A stretch of DNA of 64,000 nucleotides, taken from Candidatus Daviesbacteria bacterium (GTDB taxonomy: Bacteria > Patescibacteriota > Microgenomatia > Daviesbacterales > UBA10151). This document shows positions 2,855 through 10,410 of the stretch, piece by piece (within the stretch, counting starts at the first letter, position 1; each line of letters opens with the position of its first letter). The stretch is from the NCBI GenBank assembly GCA_028687915.1, contig JAQTZF010000001.1, positions 354,634 to 418,633 of the forward strand, in the 5' to 3' direction. Both the position numbers and the translations under genes were made by a program. Below the pieces are notes generated by a model that saw only the letters and a program-made list of their open reading frames with translations, was not told the DNA's origin and made no database searches.

Positions 2855-3742
2855 ATGATTAATTTAATGGGAAAAAAATGGTGGTTCTTTATACTGTCTA
2901 CCATCATAATTATTCCTGGTATTATTTCTTTATTTGTTTATGGATTAAATTTAGGAATAGACTTTACTGGTGGAGCGCTTTTGGAATATAATTTTCAGCA
3001 ACCTGTTGATAAGGAACAATTAAAGGAGAATATAAAATCTGCAAATGTAGATGTGTCAGTTATTACAAACTCAGGACCAAGTACTTATATTGTAAAAACA
3101 AAACCTATAAACCAAAATCAGATAAATAAAATTAAAGAGGTTTTATCTCAAAAATATCCCAAGGTGAGTGAGGAGAGAGTTGAAAATATTGGTCCTTCAA
3201 TAGGAGCAGAAACTACCAAAAACGCTTTTATTGCGGTTGTTGTGGCCTCAATAATGATTATCCTTTATTTAGCGATTTCTTTTAGGAAAGTTCCGAAACC
3301 TGCATCTTCATGGAGATTTGGAATAACAGCAGTTGCTGCGCTTTTACATGATGTTTTACTCGTAGTGGGAGTATTTTCTATTTTAGGACATTTTTTAAAT
3401 GTTGAAATTGATGTTTTATTTGTGACAGCAATCTTAACAGTAATTGGTTTTTCTGTTCATGACACTATTGTTGTTTTTGATAGGATCAGAGAAAATTTGC
3501 CTAAAAATTTATCTAAAAGTTTTACAGAAATTGCGAATATTTCTATCACACAAACATTAGCCAGATCACTAAACACTTCTTTAACAGTGATATTGGTGCT
3601 TTTGGCAATGTTACTTTTTGGAGGAGATTCTATTAGATGGTTTATTGTTGCATTACTTATTGGAATTATTTCCGGAACTTATTCTTCTATCTTTAATGCT
3701 ACAGCGCTTCTAGTAGCCTGGGAAGAAAAATTAGGACATTAA
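2855..3742 (+). CDS. secF: Protein-export membrane protein SecF
   Basis: N-terminus 'LGIDFTGGALLEY' and a C-terminal 6-TM domain typical of SecF. Confidence 0.85.
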   Translation: MINLMGKKWWFFILSTIIIIPGIISLFVYGLNLGIDFTGGALLEYNFQQPVDKEQLKENIKSANVDVSVITNSGPSTYIVKTKPINQNQINKIKEVLSQKYPKVSEERVENIGPSIGAETTKNAFIAVVVASIMIILYLAISFRKVPKPASSWRFGITAVAALLHDVLLVVGVFSILGHFLNVEIDVLFVTAILTVIGFSVHDTIVVFDRIRENLPKNLSKSFTEIANISITQTLARSLNTSLTVILVLLAMLLFGGDSIRWFIVALLIGIISGTYSSIFNATALLVAWEEKLGH

Positions 3743-3747
3743 CTAAG

Positions 3748-5082
3748 TTAGTTTAAACTCTTAACTTTTTCCAGTAAATATTCTTTATTATTTTTAGTAT
3801 GATCTTCTAAAACTTCTTCAAAAAGTTTATTTAAAATCTCTCCAACTTTCTTACTAGGTGGAATATTTAAAGTATCCATTACATCCTGGCCATTTATTTT
3901 TAAATCAGAAATAGAAAATGGTTTAGTTAAAACTTGTTTTATCCTATCCTGGAATGCTTCCATTCTCCAGGAAACTGCCCTTTCTGTTCCTCCTCCTAAC
4001 CTGTCTCCTATCCGTAAAGCTATAGCATCATTGATATTTTCAAGTCCTACATTATTAATAAACCTTCTGATAGCAGAGTCTGTTTGATTTTCATCAACAC
4101 TAAACTGGTGCCATCTTACTAAACGAAATAACTTATCAGTTTGTTTTTTACTCATATTAAATCTTTTGGCGATTTGCAAAACTAACCTTGATCCCACAAC
4201 TTCATGATTATAAAAACTGACATTTCCGGTTTCATCTGTTTTAGCTGTTGCAGGTTTTCCTATATCATGAAGTAAAGCAGCAAGACGAACTAAAGGGTCT
4301 TCGGAGGGGATTGTCTTAAGAGAAAGAAGTGAGTGCTCTCCAATGTCATAAATTCTGTCATGTTTAGGTCCTTCTTGTGCAACACCAAAGCATGATTCTA
4401 TCTCTGGTAAAATAATTTGTAAAATCCCCGCTTCCCTTAGCTTTAGTATACCTATGTATGGATTCACTGATGCAAGGATTTGAAGTAATTCATCCCTTAC
4501 TCTTTCATGAGCGATTTCCTTAATTAGAAGAGCATCTTGCTGAATTGATTTAAAAGTTTCTTTTTCTATATCAAATCCCAGTTGAGTGGCAATTCTAACA
4601 GCACGCATCATTCGTAGGGCATCTTCTTTAAAACGGTTATTAGGATCTCCTACAGCTCGTACTAACGTATTCTTTATATCATTTTCACCTCCGTAGGGAT
4701 CAATAATATTACCAGTTTCATCTAATGCCATCGCGTTAATCGTAAAATCACGTCTAGCTAAATCTTCTTCAATTTTATTTGTCCAACCAACTTCTGTTGG
4801 GTGCCGGGAATCCTTATAAATTCCCTCTTTTCTCATTGTTGTAATTTCAAATGTTTGATCACCAATTGGAATACCAACTGTGCCAAACTTATTATCATAA
4901 AAAGCATCAGCAAAGAGTTTTAATACATCTTCTGGTTGAGCATCAGTAGTAAAGTCCCAATCATGGACTGTTCTGTTCATAAAAAGATCACGCACTGCTC
5001 CTCCGACAATATAGATTTTAAAGCTGGTACTCTTAAATTTTTCTAAAATATCATTTACACTTTCTGGTAGTAAGTAAGTCAT
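3748..5082 (-). CDS. cca: CCA-adding tRNA nucleotidyltransferase / poly(A) polymerase family protein with HD domain
   Basis: 'IYIVGGAVRDLFMNRTVHDWDFTT' is the Pol-beta NTase head domain GGxVRD..D.D. C-terminal 'LHDIGK' is an HD motif. Confidence 0.8.
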   Translation of the reverse strand: MTYLLPESVNDILEKFKSTSFKIYIVGGAVRDLFMNRTVHDWDFTTDAQPEDVLKLFADAFYDNKFGTVGIPIGDQTFEITTMRKEGIYKDSRHPTEVGWTNKIEEDLARRDFTINAMALDETGNIIDPYGGENDIKNTLVRAVGDPNNRFKEDALRMMRAVRIATQLGFDIEKETFKSIQQDALLIKEIAHERVRDELLQILASVNPYIGILKLREAGILQIILPEIESCFGVAQEGPKHDRIYDIGEHSLLSLKTIPSEDPLVRLAALLHDIGKPATAKTDETGNVSFYNHEVVGSRLVLQIAKRFNMSKKQTDKLFRLVRWHQFSVDENQTDSAIRRFINNVGLENINDAIALRIGDRLGGGTERAVSWRMEAFQDRIKQVLTKPFSISDLKINGQDVMDTLNIPPSKKVGEILNKLFEEVLEDHTKNNKEYLLEKVKSLN

Positions 5083-7659: not shown

Positions 7660-7977
7660 TTACACCTCCTTTCTTATTTCGTTTTTAATTATTCCTGGAT
7701 ATTCTGGTGTTGGTAAACCGTTACCAAATATTAGACGCCCGCGTACCAGTCTACTATTTTCTAAAGGTATGTTTTTTGTTTGTGATTGAGACTGAGAGGG
7801 AATATCTAGATTTTGTCCAGATTCCCTTACTTCAAGCTCTCTATTTAATATTTCTTGTTCACTTATTGCCATAAAAAAACCTCTCATTTCTGAGAGGCCT
7901 CGTTCTGCATTTAGGTTTTTATTTTTCCTAAATGAGACCTCCCATAGGTACTCCAATGAGGACCAAGAGAAGGCCAA
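7660..7977 (-). CDS. Small hypothetical protein. The likely product is 70 aa starting at the internal ATG (7872, MAISEQEIL...); the upstream in-frame part (TTG start at 7977) is aromatic-rich and crosses a hairpin + U-run.
   Basis: On the minus strand, GGCCTCTCA-gaaa-TGAGAGG-UUUUUUU precedes ATGGCAATAAGT directly. The hairpin's 3' arm GAGAGG could act as the SD. Confidence 0.4.
   Translation of the reverse strand: MAFSWSSLEYLWEVSFRKNKNLNAERGLSEMRGFFMAISEQEILNRELEVRESGQNLDIPSQSQSQTKNIPLENSRLVRGRLIFGNGLPTPEYPGIIKNEIRKEV
7873..7897 (-). terminator. Hairpin (CCTCTCA/TGAGAGG) + 7-U run on the minus strand, ending immediately before the ATG at 7872. Possible 5' attenuator or terminator.
   Basis: Plus-strand sequence aaaaaaaCCTCTCAtttcTGAGAGG read directly. 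Confidence 0.45.
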
Positions 7978-8051
7978 GTAAAATAATATTAGTGTTAAAA
8001 ATATTTAATGAATTCATAACTAAAGAGCATTATAGGTCTCTATATTAACTA

Positions 8052-8080
8052 TTGTCAACAATAAGAATATTTGTTAATAT
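8052..8080 (+). promoter_or_regulatory. Sigma-70-like promoter TTGTCA-17-TAATAT
   Basis: Hexamers read directly. The predicted TSS falls ~7 nt downstream, at the ATG of the leader ORF (a leaderless mRNA). Confidence 0.45.
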
Positions 8081-8087
8081 ATTTGTT

Positions 8088-8156
8088 ATGCAAATAAAAA
8101 TGAATCGCTTTTATTTTTGGTTTACTTCCCATAAAGGGAGGAGCTTGACGTCTTAA
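8088..8156 (+). CDS. Putative leader peptide, MQIKMNRFYFWFTSHKGRSLTS (22 aa, or 18 aa from the second ATG at 8100)
   Basis: Short ORF immediately downstream of the promoter, rich in Phe/Tyr/Trp codons. Its 3' end covers segments 1 and 2 of the downstream attenuator. Confidence 0.3.
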   Translation: MQIKMNRFYFWFTSHKGRSLTS

Positions 8157-8213
8157 AAAGTCGAAAAACTTTTTAAACAGAAAGTATAACCTCCCACAAG
8201 GGAGGTTTTTTTT
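8126..8213 (+). promoter_or_regulatory. Transcription/translation attenuator with four segments: TTCCC (8126-8130), GGGAGG (8136-8141), CCTCCC (8190-8195), GGGAGG (8200-8205) + U8. Pairing 3:4 gives a terminator that sequesters the SD; pairing 2:3 gives an antiterminator.
   Basis: Complementarity read directly. The terminator hairpin CCTCCC-acaa-GGGAGG is followed by TTTTTTTT and then the ATG at 8214, so the only SD-like sequence for the NTase lies in the terminator 3' arm. Confidence 0.55.
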
Positions 8214-9014
8214 ATGGAGAAAAAGATGTTATCAGAAACAACAAGATATATTACTCATGGTGATACGGGGCTACCAATAAGAACTCCGCCGTATTTAAGA
8301 AAAGAACTAAAACGCGGATCTGAAATAGGCGACCTACAAAGAGGGATGATGGAAACAAGTCCTGTTATAGGTCAAAGAGGTCAGAGGGATTGCTTGCCAA
8401 ATAATATTTTAGAAAACATTCGTTTAAGAAAAATAGCTCGGTCTGTATCCAAGAGACTAGTGGCAATCGCAGAGGAGAAAGGAATTGGTCGGTATTGCAC
8501 TGTTGTTCATGGTTCGCTTGCCAGAGGGTTAGTTCGCCATACAGAGAGCTGTGATCCTAGTGATATCGATATTGACCTAGTAATCGGAAGTAAAAGGGAT
8601 TGTCAAAATTTGAGAAGCCAAGTTCGAGAGCAGATGTATGATTTAAGCGATCACTTTGGAGTAAGAATTGATTCTTACGTATGGAATATCGAAGAAATGA
8701 GAAGAAACAAAGGAGAATACGCCCGACTATATTTAGGTGCTGGTGCTTATTCAATTACTTGTAAGGGTAAGATATGGGAGGAGATTCAAGAGGTGGGTAT
8801 AGAAAGTCAAAAATTTATTAATTTAGATAAAAATACAAAAAGTCAATTATTTAAACGTCTTAATTATATTTTAACCAATAATATTACTGAAGCATTAACA
8901 GGATTTAAAAGTGGCAGAATGCAATCTGTGGTGTGTTCCTATTTTGGTGAGACGCTAGAACCATGGGAAATAATATTAAAAGCACAAGCTTTAAAAAGAC
9001 TAATTATGTCTTAA
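8214..9014 (+). CDS. Pol-beta-superfamily nucleotidyltransferase, ANT/Lnu-like (antibiotic nucleotidyltransferase-like fold); function unknown
   Basis: 'VVHGSLARGLVRHTESCDPSDIDIDLVIG' matches hG[GS]x9-13Dh[DE]h, very like the 'GS...G.....SDIE' of Lnu/ANT(4')/ANT(9). A third acidic residue candidate is in 'VRIDSYVW'. 266 aa. Confidence 0.65.
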   Translation: MEKKMLSETTRYITHGDTGLPIRTPPYLRKELKRGSEIGDLQRGMMETSPVIGQRGQRDCLPNNILENIRLRKIARSVSKRLVAIAEEKGIGRYCTVVHGSLARGLVRHTESCDPSDIDIDLVIGSKRDCQNLRSQVREQMYDLSDHFGVRIDSYVWNIEEMRRNKGEYARLYLGAGAYSITCKGKIWEEIQEVGIESQKFINLDKNTKSQLFKRLNYILTNNITEALTGFKSGRMQSVVCSYFGETLEPWEIILKAQALKRLIMS

Positions 9015-9090
9015 ATCAAAATACAAAGGAGGTGGTAACTATTTGATTGATATTGTTAATGTAGCCTCAAACTGATATGATCTATCGAGT

Positions 9091-10410
9091 ATGTCAAGAA
9101 CATTAATTATTGATTGTAATAACAAAGTTGGTGAAAAAGTTACCATTTGTGGGTTTGTACAAACCCGACGTGACCATGGGAAAATTGTTTTTTTAGATAT
9201 TTTGGATAGATCCGGATTAATTCAGGTAGTGGCTATGGGAGATATGGCATTAGGCTTAAATTCTCAGGATGTAGTTTGTATAGAAGGAACTGTTAGTAAC
9301 CGTCCCGAACATATGATAAATAAAAATTTATCAACAGGAGAAATAGAATTCCAGGCAGAAAAAATAGAGATTCTTTCAAAAGCAGAAGACTTGCCTTTTG
9401 ATATGGGTGTTAAAGACTTAGATTTACAACTCCCAACACTTTTAGATTTTAGGTCTTTGACCTTAAGGTTTCCTAAAGTTAAAGATATTTTTAGAGTACA
9501 AGCAGCTCTTTTAGATGGTTTTAGAAATGCTGCAAAAAAATTAGATTGTGTAGAAATTATTGTTCCAACTATATCCGCTGGTTCAACAGAAGGTGGAGCA
9601 GAAGTTTTTAAAGTTGATTATTATGGACATAAAGGATTTTTAACTCAAAGTCCTCAGCTTTATAAACAGATGATGGTGCCGGTTTATGAACGTGTTTTTA
9701 CCATTGCCAAAGCCTATCGGGCAGAGCCTTCTGTGACTACTTACCACTTATCTGAATCAACACAAATGGATTGCGAATTTGGCTTTGTTAAATTTGAAGA
9801 TCTGCTAAATTATCTGGAAACTGTGGCAGTTGAAATGATAAATGAATCTGCAAAAAATTGCGAAAGTATCTTAAAAGAATTTGATGTTCCAATGCCAAAA
9901 TTTGGGAAAATTCCTCGTTTAACTTTAAGAGAAGCCCAGGAAGTTATTTATAAAGAAACAGGAAGGGACGTTCGTCAGGAAAAAGATCTGGCACGCCAAG
10001 ATGAGGTTGATATTTGTGTTTGGGCTTTAAAAGAACATGGAAGTGATTTAGTGACAATTACACATTTCCCAACAAAGAAACGTGCTTTTTACACAAAGCC
10101 AGATCCAGCTAATCCAGAGTTTAGTTTAAGTTATGATATTTTATTTCGTGGTTTAGAAATTTGTAGTGGTTCGCAAAGGATAAATGATTGTCAGGAGCTT
10201 AAAGATGCAATTATCGAAAGAGGGATGGATCCAAAAAACTTTGAGCTTTATCTACAAGCATTTAAATACGGAATGCCTCCTGAAGGAGGGTTCTCGTTTG
10301 GGTTGGAAAGAATAACAATGCATTTATTAAATCTTGCAAATGTTCGTGAAGCTTCTTTATTCCCAAGAGATATGGAAAGAGTTGATGTAAGATTATCAAC
10401 TTTAAAATGA
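9091..10410 (+). CDS. Class IIb aminoacyl-tRNA synthetase, aspartyl-tRNA synthetase type 2 (archaeal-like; AsnRS not excluded)
   Basis: N-terminal OB anticodon-binding domain. Class II motifs include motif 3 'GGFSFGLERITMHLL' and 'FPRD'. 439 aa. Confidence 0.75.
   Translation: MSRTLIIDCNNKVGEKVTICGFVQTRRDHGKIVFLDILDRSGLIQVVAMGDMALGLNSQDVVCIEGTVSNRPEHMINKNLSTGEIEFQAEKIEILSKAEDLPFDMGVKDLDLQLPTLLDFRSLTLRFPKVKDIFRVQAALLDGFRNAAKKLDCVEIIVPTISAGSTEGGAEVFKVDYYGHKGFLTQSPQLYKQMMVPVYERVFTIAKAYRAEPSVTTYHLSESTQMDCEFGFVKFEDLLNYLETVAVEMINESAKNCESILKEFDVPMPKFGKIPRLTLREAQEVIYKETGRDVRQEKDLARQDEVDICVWALKEHGSDLVTITHFPTKKRAFYTKPDPANPEFSLSYDILFRGLEICSGSQRINDCQELKDAIIERGMDPKNFELYLQAFKYGMPPEGGFSFGLERITMHLLNLANVREASLFPRDMERVDVRLSTLK

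Follow-up and report, generated by a model that had tools for sequence, protein, structure and literature searches.

Introduction

Attenuation governed by a leader peptide is a textbook mechanism in proteobacteria and has been reported in actinobacteria. Among the described systems, pheST is cited as a classical attenuator (PMC1262725), and the leaderless polycysteine attenuators of mycobacteria place a short open reading frame (ORF) at the 5' end of the transcript with no Shine-Dalgarno sequence (SD) before it (bioRxiv 10.1101/834739). Here we analyse a leader region of comparable design in a 64-kb stretch of DNA (hereafter the window) from a Candidatus Daviesbacteria genome, an uncultivated member of the Microgenomates in the Candidate Phyla Radiation (CPR). 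The leader lies directly upstream of a gene for an orphan nucleotidyltransferase (NTase) of the Pol-beta fold (8214..9014, plus strand). Very probably it is a classical ribosome-mediated transcription attenuator of the trp/pheA/pheST type, which would sense charged tRNA-Phe and gate expression of the NTase. A full-text literature search pairing the Candidate Phyla Radiation with attenuation found no paper.

Results

A short ORF with a phenylalanine codon cluster precedes the NTase gene

A pattern scan of the plus strand identified a sigma-70-like promoter (8052..8080; 9/12) made up of TTGTCA at 8052-8057, a 17 nt spacer and TAATAT at 8075-8080. Its extended -10 box (TGt-TAATAT) ends 7 nt before the ATG at 8088, which opens a leader ORF of 22 codons (8088..8156, stop TAA at 8154-8156; MQIKMNRFYFWFTSHKGRSLTS) that has no SD. 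The regulatory codon cluster F-Y-F-W-F (TTT TAT TTT TGG TTT, 8109..8123) is situated directly 5' of the first of four RNA segments described below.

We compared this region with homologous loci, of which nine independent ones have complete upstream DNA (the window, L001, L004, L007, L008, L009, L010, L011 and L018); the NTases downstream share 35-72% identity. Two partial loci agree with the architecture of the nine: L019, in which the truncated leader reads ...FFFTFA*, and L021, in which the terminator is retained. L015 and L017 (40% and 26% identity) were excluded from the statistics, and scans of contigs from genomes and metagenomes added few further loci.

Each of the nine loci has exactly one short Phe-rich ORF just 5' of the NTase gene. 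Besides that of the window, the predicted peptides are MFNKHSNFRFFFTFANSRR (L001), MKLDLNSNKVFWFFYFTR (L004), MYTHQQPKYYFNFWFTFLNREVS (L007), MKQYSNVIVFEFFFTFA (L008), MTQKLNKIPACRQAGFAFYFNFA (L009), MQKLGEISLFFFTFA (L010), MRSHQPNFAFYSQKSFAYFAYFTSRKGGWLMS (L011) and MLRPTKTFRFFGYFTFA (L018). The sole feature common to them is the Phe cluster, which takes forms such as FYFWFT, FRFFFTF, FWFFYFT, FNFWFTF, FEFFFTFA*, FAFYFNFA*, LFFFTFA* and FRFFGYFTFA*. Phe accounts for 40 of the 186 leader codons (21.5%, against a composition-based 6.25%; binomial p 6e-12), while Tyr (11 codons) and Trp (4) occur facultatively. Eight of the nine loci have a good sigma-70-like promoter, mostly with the TG extension, whose end is separated from the leader ATG by 7-11 nt with no SD in between, and on the basis of this spacing we regard the leaderless character of the ORF as a conserved trait.

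Four co-varying segments are predicted to form alternative hairpins according to ribosome position

Segment 1 (ACUUCCC, 8124..8130, plus strand as are all four; core CTTCCC at 8125-8130) is the 5' arm of hairpin 1 and lies within the leader ORF, where it encodes Thr-Ser-His. Segment 2 (GGGAGGAG, 8136..8143; core GGGAGG at 8136-8141) is the 3' arm of hairpin 1 and can alternatively pair with segment 3 as an antiterminator, enclosing an AT-rich spacer hairpin (UUAAAAAGU / ACUUUUUAA, 8153..8176) whose sequence is not conserved between loci. Segment 3 (AACCUCCC, DNA AACCTCCC, 8188..8195) and segment 4 (GGGAGGUU, DNA GGGAGGTT, 8200-8207) are the 5' and 3' arms of an intrinsic terminator found by pattern scan, which is completed by a U8 tract at 8206-8213 (segment 4 and U-tract together 8200..8213). 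The terminator hairpin alone folds with -12.9 kcal/mol. The 143-nt leader as a whole folds with -36.2 kcal/mol, compared to -25.1 +/- 3.2 for dinucleotide shuffles (z = -3.4), and none of 200 shuffles folded as well.

The order of promoter, SD-less short ORF, hairpin 1 and terminator recurs in every homologous locus examined (the nine and, as far as they extend, the partial ones). Segment 1 directly follows the Phe cluster in every case, overlapping the codons just past the Phe run; the leader stop codon falls in the loop of hairpin 1 or shortly 3' of segment 2; and a second hairpin is then followed by U6-8. Segments 2 and 4 are near-identical within a genome and different between genomes (GGGAGG, GCGGAGG, GGCGAGU, GGGGAG, GCGGGG, GGGGGG and GGAAGG among the variants), and segments 1 and 3 vary correspondingly. 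Alignment with MAFFT, of full leaders or of trimmed cores, left the stems shifted by one column between rows, and for this reason we relied on duplex energies and constraint folds for each locus. Duplexes formed from segments of the same locus were more stable than those formed across loci for all three pairings: -8.8 versus -6.1 kcal/mol for 1:2, -12.0 versus -8.3 for 2:3 and -12.4 versus -8.2 for 3:4 (permutation p <= 1e-4, with segments delimited by hand from the folds and phylogenetic relatedness ignored). RNAalifold recovered both hairpins from the trimmed cores, and 6 of 14 pairs showed compensatory double changes.

To represent the ribosome we masked the RNA beneath it, with either a Phe codon or the stop codon in the A site. 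With the ribosome at a Phe codon, the nascent RNA before segment 4 forms 2:3 and segment 3 is occupied in all nine loci; for the window, with the ribosome at Phe12, this antiterminator has -19.4 kcal/mol and the terminator hairpin -12.9. A ribosome at the stop codon leaves segment 3 entirely or largely free. In full-length leaders 2:3 displaces the terminator at equilibrium in seven of the nine loci. The minimum free energy (MFE) structures of the other two, the window and L001, retain the terminator despite the masking of segment 1, so the switch there must be kinetic.

An initial annotation of this region, made from the sequence alone, had described the promoter, the 22-codon ORF opened by ATG, the four segments and the terminator with its U8, all of which we find in the same places. 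Its proposal that a leaderless short ORF runs into a four-segment terminator/antiterminator, and that ribosome-mediated attenuation precedes a Pol-beta-fold NTase, is supported as well. It had named a lack of conservation or covariation of the hairpins in homologous loci as grounds for refutation, and on this point same-locus duplexes, constraint folds and RNAalifold favour the element.

From these features we infer the transcription start site, ribosome stalling and termination as follows. Transcription would start at ATG 8088 or a few bases from it, and the mRNA, itself leaderless, would be translated through the 22 codons of the leader ORF. With ample Phe-tRNA, the ribosome would pass F-Y-F-W-F and reach the stop codon, covering segments 1 and 2; the free segment 3 would pair with segment 4 as it emerges, and the hairpin with its U8 would terminate transcription before the NTase. 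When Phe-tRNA is scarce, the ribosome would stall on the Phe codons and cover only segment 1, leaving segment 2 (GGGAGG) to pair with segment 3 (CCUCCC); no terminator would form and RNA polymerase would read into the NTase gene. Were the leader not translated, 1:2 and 3:4 would both form and transcription would terminate.

The gene after the leader encodes a rare orphan NTase

The NTase is 266 aa long when counted from ATG 8214 and 262 aa from ATG 8226. Its alpha/beta core fold and G[GS] ... DxD ... D signature are those by which the Pol-beta superfamily is recognised, and the catalytic residues G100-S101, D117 and D119 are invariant among 25 sequences, with D153 at least 90% conserved. Given this conservation the enzyme is probably active. 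The family also displays conserved arginines (R23, R55, R72, R108 and R171), a basic character (median pI 9.0) and a unique, highly conserved N-terminal extension of 65 residues (GLPIRxPxYLR ... ENxRLRKIA). Its Phe content is 2.24%, compared to 4.65% in the ORFs of the window, and ranks second lowest among 53 ORFs; Tyr and Trp show no depletion. Such poverty in Phe is as expected of proteins made during Phe starvation.

Homologues are few. A word-indexed database of 5.8 billion proteins yielded 8, and a profile re-search of it only one new member, while an exhaustive profile search of 1.84 billion representatives returned about 22 close clusters (50% identity) followed by weak NTP_transf_2/Polbeta-like proteins. 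Sequence searches of Pfam, NCBIfam and the PDB gave no significant match to the 266-aa protein, Foldseek gave none against the PDB below E 1e-3, and PADLOC gave a marginal, non-significant match. In the Pol-beta comparison the tabulated figures were 9.1 for the MNT antitoxin 5yep, 8.9 for ANT(4') 6nlt, 7.2-7.4 for ANT(9), DrrA and GlnE, and 6.3 for LinB, and no profile or structural match was specific to the Lnu or ANT families. No HEPN partner adjoins the NTase; the small ORFs downstream in relatives lack a HEPN or shared domain, and the window has no such ORF. Judged from its sequence, this is probably a catalytically competent, rare orphan family of the Pol-beta fold.

pheS or a prephenate dehydratase gene follows the NTase in some relatives

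The gene that always adjoins the leader unit is the NTase. The order in L018 and L009 is rplT, leader, NTase, small ORF and pheS, and in L008 leader, NTase and, 10 nt later, a 403-aa prephenate dehydratase (PDT)/ACT protein. Scans of these three loci found no convincing terminator between the NTase and the downstream pheS or PDT genes, and the arrangement indicates that the NTase is co-transcribed with pheS or PDT in some relatives. No homologue of pheS, PDT or tRNA_edit was found in the 64-kb window.

Several further observations concern the neighbourhood. In L009 a strong GC hairpin (CCTGCCTGCC-GG-CAGGCAGG followed by TTTT, 620-639) lies inside the predicted leader ORF, 3' of a promoter-like TATAAT, and is probably the rplT terminator. 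A conserved two-gene module of NTase and small protein was considered and rejected: the downstream ORFs of 51-90 aa are mutually unrelated, except that the 51-aa ORF of L001 (4812-4967, between NTase and aspS) resembles the 67-aa ORF of L009 (40% identity over 45 aa, E 2e-6). The 77-nt gap between NTase and aspS in the window (9014-9091) contains a strong SD and then a 10-codon TTG ORF, which may be a remnant of the gene for the L001 51-aa ORF.

An aminoacyl-tRNA theme recurs around the family, in genomes where translation genes are dense anyway. A free-standing tRNA_edit gene (YbaK-type aminoacyl-tRNA editing) adjoins the NTase in L004 (4985-5437), L017 (2606-3043) and L020 (1062-1517), and a TrpRS/TyrRS-type gene is near it in L004 and L015. 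In L015 the NTase is followed by an NYN gene and the TrpRS/TyrRS-type gene; in L017 it is flanked by the tRNA_edit gene and a small TrpR-like gene. The tRNA genes beside the L004 and L017 NTases are tRNA-Met, which rules out tRNA-Phe at these positions. L015 additionally carries, 5' of its NTase gene, three tandem units of hairpin, U-run and RUGG (2100-2366) with a triple ATGAATT repeat between units, and a weak Rfam match to Trp_leader (28.9 bits; gathering score 41). This triple unit may be a different or compound attenuator.

Charged tRNA-Phe is the probable signal

At the gathering threshold, Rfam finds only two tRNAs in the window. In a permissive scan of 8030-8240, Phe_leader (RF01859) was the best of 4227 families, matching over the full model length with 38.7 bits (E 2.4e-5; gathering score 55 bits), and L001 and L007 gave weaker matches to the same model. 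The consensus line of the Phe_leader alignment translates as ...FFFAFFFTFP*, similar to the FFFTFA* of L008, L010 and L019. Together with the pheS/PDT context, the Phe-poor NTase and leader peptides in which the nine-locus comparison found no conserved arrest motif beyond the Phe run, this match leads us to prefer Phe-tRNA over a drug as the signal.

The position of the NTase start bears on how the switch acts. Homologues begin at the position of ATG 8226, which is in frame with ATG 8214 and has its own SD (GGAG, 8216..8219, plus strand, 6 nt before the ATG, as part of a conserved U-tract-RUGG(A/G) motif). Comparison of the sequences thus suggests that ATG 8226 is probably the conserved start. 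L009 and L010 do have an ATG right behind the U-tract, but in another reading frame that a stop closes immediately. The terminator lies about 25-70 nt 5' of the start codon in L004, L010 and L018, and that start codon has a separate SD; given these distances and the separate GGAG, masking of an SD is at most a local extra in the window.

What is conserved directly after the terminator U-tract, in almost all loci, is the RUGG(A/G) motif and no start codon. The motif is present at 8214-8219 of the window and in L001, L004, L008, L009, L010, L015, L017, L018, L019 and L021. It also occurs on the minus-strand leader of the window (UUUUUUUAUGG), and overlaps the SD in some loci and not in others.

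Of the alternatives to a Phe-tRNA attenuator, the one that survives best, very unlikely as we judge it, is drug or nascent-peptide attenuation, in which an antibiotic stalls the ribosome, an SD is unmasked or the terminator relieved, and an ANT/Lnu-like resistance NTase is induced. In a softer form, the sensor would detect an inhibitor of PheRS and the NTase would inactivate it; any depletion of Phe-tRNA, by a PheRS inhibitor included, would indeed trigger the same sensor. The window GGGAGG, 8 nt before ATG 8214 and within the terminator stem, could also serve such a design, whereas L004, L010 and L018 do without SD sequestration. The absence of an arrest motif and the presence of the NTase gene in pheS and PDT operons speak against a drug signal, as does the enzyme itself: it matches no resistance family in Pfam or NCBIfam, and tblastn against 72,556 plasmids found no homologue. 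Aminoglycoside-binding ANTs are acidic, whereas this family is basic with invariant arginines.

The initial annotation had favoured such a reading, and here it fares less well. Its terminator with U8 stands, whereas the same hairpin is not the only SD of the NTase, given the GGAG that serves ATG 8226; nor does SD sequestration look like the design of the element in view of the distant terminators of three relatives. The proposed analogy to ermC and cat gives way to peptides sharing just Phe codons, to Phe_leader as best Rfam model and to the pheS/PDT context. Kinship of the NTase with lincosamide and aminoglycoside enzymes extends no further than the Pol-beta superfamily, its identity as a resistance gene finds no backing in Pfam, NCBIfam or plasmid sequences, and nothing supports the product of the divergent small genes as its substrate.

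Still less likely, we consider, is an untranslated RNA element (a riboswitch, a leader bound by a protein or a tRNA, or the gene of a small RNA that ends in its own terminator) in which the short ORF is accidental. Phe codons arise easily in a region this rich in U, the ORF has no SD, and activity in trans of a terminated attenuator RNA has a precedent in rnTrpL of Sinorhizobium (PMC6614838). An accidental ORF is nevertheless difficult to square with nine loci that keep the ATG, a frame open through the Phe run and a stop at hairpin 1. In most loci Phe codons are more frequent in the frame of the ORF than in the two alternative frames, and TTT/TTC and ACT/ACC alternate synonymously at equivalent positions between loci. 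Rfam finds no riboswitch or T-box in the leader region, its top match being a leader-peptide family. Least likely of all is control that is mainly translational, with the 3:4 hairpin hiding the NTase ribosome-binding site and termination secondary: the hairpin does end 8-20 nt from the start codon in the window, L001, L007, L008, L009 and L011, and GGGAGG could be an SD for ATG 8214, yet a U-run of 6-8 follows the hairpin in every locus as the signature of an intrinsic terminator, which lies far from the start codon in three of them, and a separate GGAG is located 3' of the U-tract.

Several points weigh against a Phe-tRNA attenuator. The window leader has just three Phe codons, interleaved with Tyr and Trp, and nothing demonstrably ties its NTase, which is followed by aspS, to Phe metabolism. 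L015 and L017, the most divergent relatives, show hairpins like those of an attenuator but no clear Phe-rich ORF. The Phe_leader score is below the gathering score, the full-length MFE structures of the window and L001 keep the terminator, and the permutation test takes hand-delimited segments and leaves relatedness aside. Finally, coupling of transcription and translation is assumed for this uncultivated CPR host.

A second, divergent leader lies on the minus strand

Read on the minus strand, the TTGTCA at 8052-8057 also forms part of a divergent promoter (TTGACA-18-TATAAT, 8058..8029), which is a perfect 12/12 match. This promoter is followed on the same strand by a Leu/Ile-rich ORF of 29 codons (8017..7928; MNSLNIFNTNIILLGLLLVLIGVPMGGLI), a hairpin (GGCCUUCU/GGGAGGUC) and a terminator (GAGGCCUCUCA-GAAA-UGAGAGG with U7, about 7903..7872), with an ATG at 7871 directly after. 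The 3' arm of the hairpin has complementarity to the terminator's 5' arm as well. The design of this unit (8058..7868) is the same as that of the plus-strand leader. The folding energy of its RNA corresponds to z = -4.7, and L001 conserves the element; it is possibly a second attenuator, perhaps of the Leu type, before two small unannotated proteins. Weak matches to one Rfam model, BTnc231 (35-36 bits; gathering score 80), at 2316-2432 and 3661-3792 on the minus strand of L001 suggest that the minus-strand leader element is repeated 5' of another small gene in this sister genome.

Discussion

The elements of the leader, their conservation, their co-variation within genomes and the dependence of the predicted folds on ribosome position are observed in silico. 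They comprise the hallmarks of a classical attenuator: an ORF with the sensed codon, an intrinsic terminator, 2:3 pairing that depends on the ribosome, and compensatory change. The mechanism is a known one; what is new is the lineage (CPR/Microgenomates), for which the literature search found no paper, the leaderless leader ORF, for which mycobacteria provide a precedent, and the regulated gene. A co-varying and apparently leaderless Phe attenuator suggests that CPR bacteria, with their reduced genomes, couple transcription to translation and monitor tRNA charging.

The attenuator further provides a functional label, in that it links a rare unannotated NTase family to limitation of Phe or Phe-tRNA and to pheST and pheA operons, and so turns a 'hypothetical protein' into a testable hypothesis. 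Since the NTase is basic, has conserved arginines and would be co-regulated with PheRS and PheA, we would tentatively guess that it targets an anionic macromolecule involved in supplying Phe-tRNA, either tRNA-Phe or PheRS, and not an antibiotic. It is conceivable, if doubtful, that the enzyme is an unrecognised player in the Phe-tRNA(Phe) homeostasis of Microgenomates, induced with PheRS or PheA upon Phe-tRNA starvation, which would either nucleotidylate an anionic participant in charging, such as tRNA-Phe or PheRS, or neutralise a natural PheRS inhibitor. In that case amino-acid attenuation would govern a gene of a new kind, and the Pol-beta fold would gain a new function.

The NTase shares its core fold and the hG[GS]...DxD...D signature with MNT antitoxins, ANT(4')/ANT(9), GlnE and DrrA, from all of which it differs in its unique N-terminal extension, its basic and Phe-poor composition and its lack of a HEPN partner. 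As in ermC and cat, the leader ORF is one whose translating ribosome remodels downstream hairpins. In those systems, however, the signal is a drug-stalled ribosome and the output an unmasked SD, whereas the present leader combines a terminator and its U-tract with a cluster of Phe codons, shows no conserved masking of an SD and precedes no gene of a resistance family. The mycobacterial polycysteine attenuators likewise have an SD-less 5' ORF in which codons of a single amino acid are over-represented; they differ in that amino acid and in phylum, and the present leader has a clear terminator/antiterminator switch.

The closest resemblances are to the Phe leaders of enterobacteria. The E. coli pheM leader sits directly after rplT and before pheST, and L018 and L009 also place a Phe leader between rplT and pheS, with the NTase and a small non-conserved ORF inserted between leader and pheS. 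The FRFFFTF of the L001 leader resembles the FRFFFYF of the pheM peptide. The window unit, in contrast, is detached from pheST, with no pheS within 64 kb. With the enterobacterial pheA leader (pheL) the element shares a short Phe-rich ORF ending in ...FFFTF(P/A)*, a segment 1 made of ACC-UUC-C/GC codons, and terminator stems of the GGGAGG/CCUCCC type followed by a U-run; in the L008 relative the operon even includes a prephenate dehydratase gene. The likeness could stem from common descent or from convergence. The differences are that the host belongs to the CPR (Microgenomates) and not to the gamma-proteobacteria, that the ORF is leaderless and without an SD, and that the first regulated gene encodes a nucleotidyltransferase in place of a biosynthetic enzyme.

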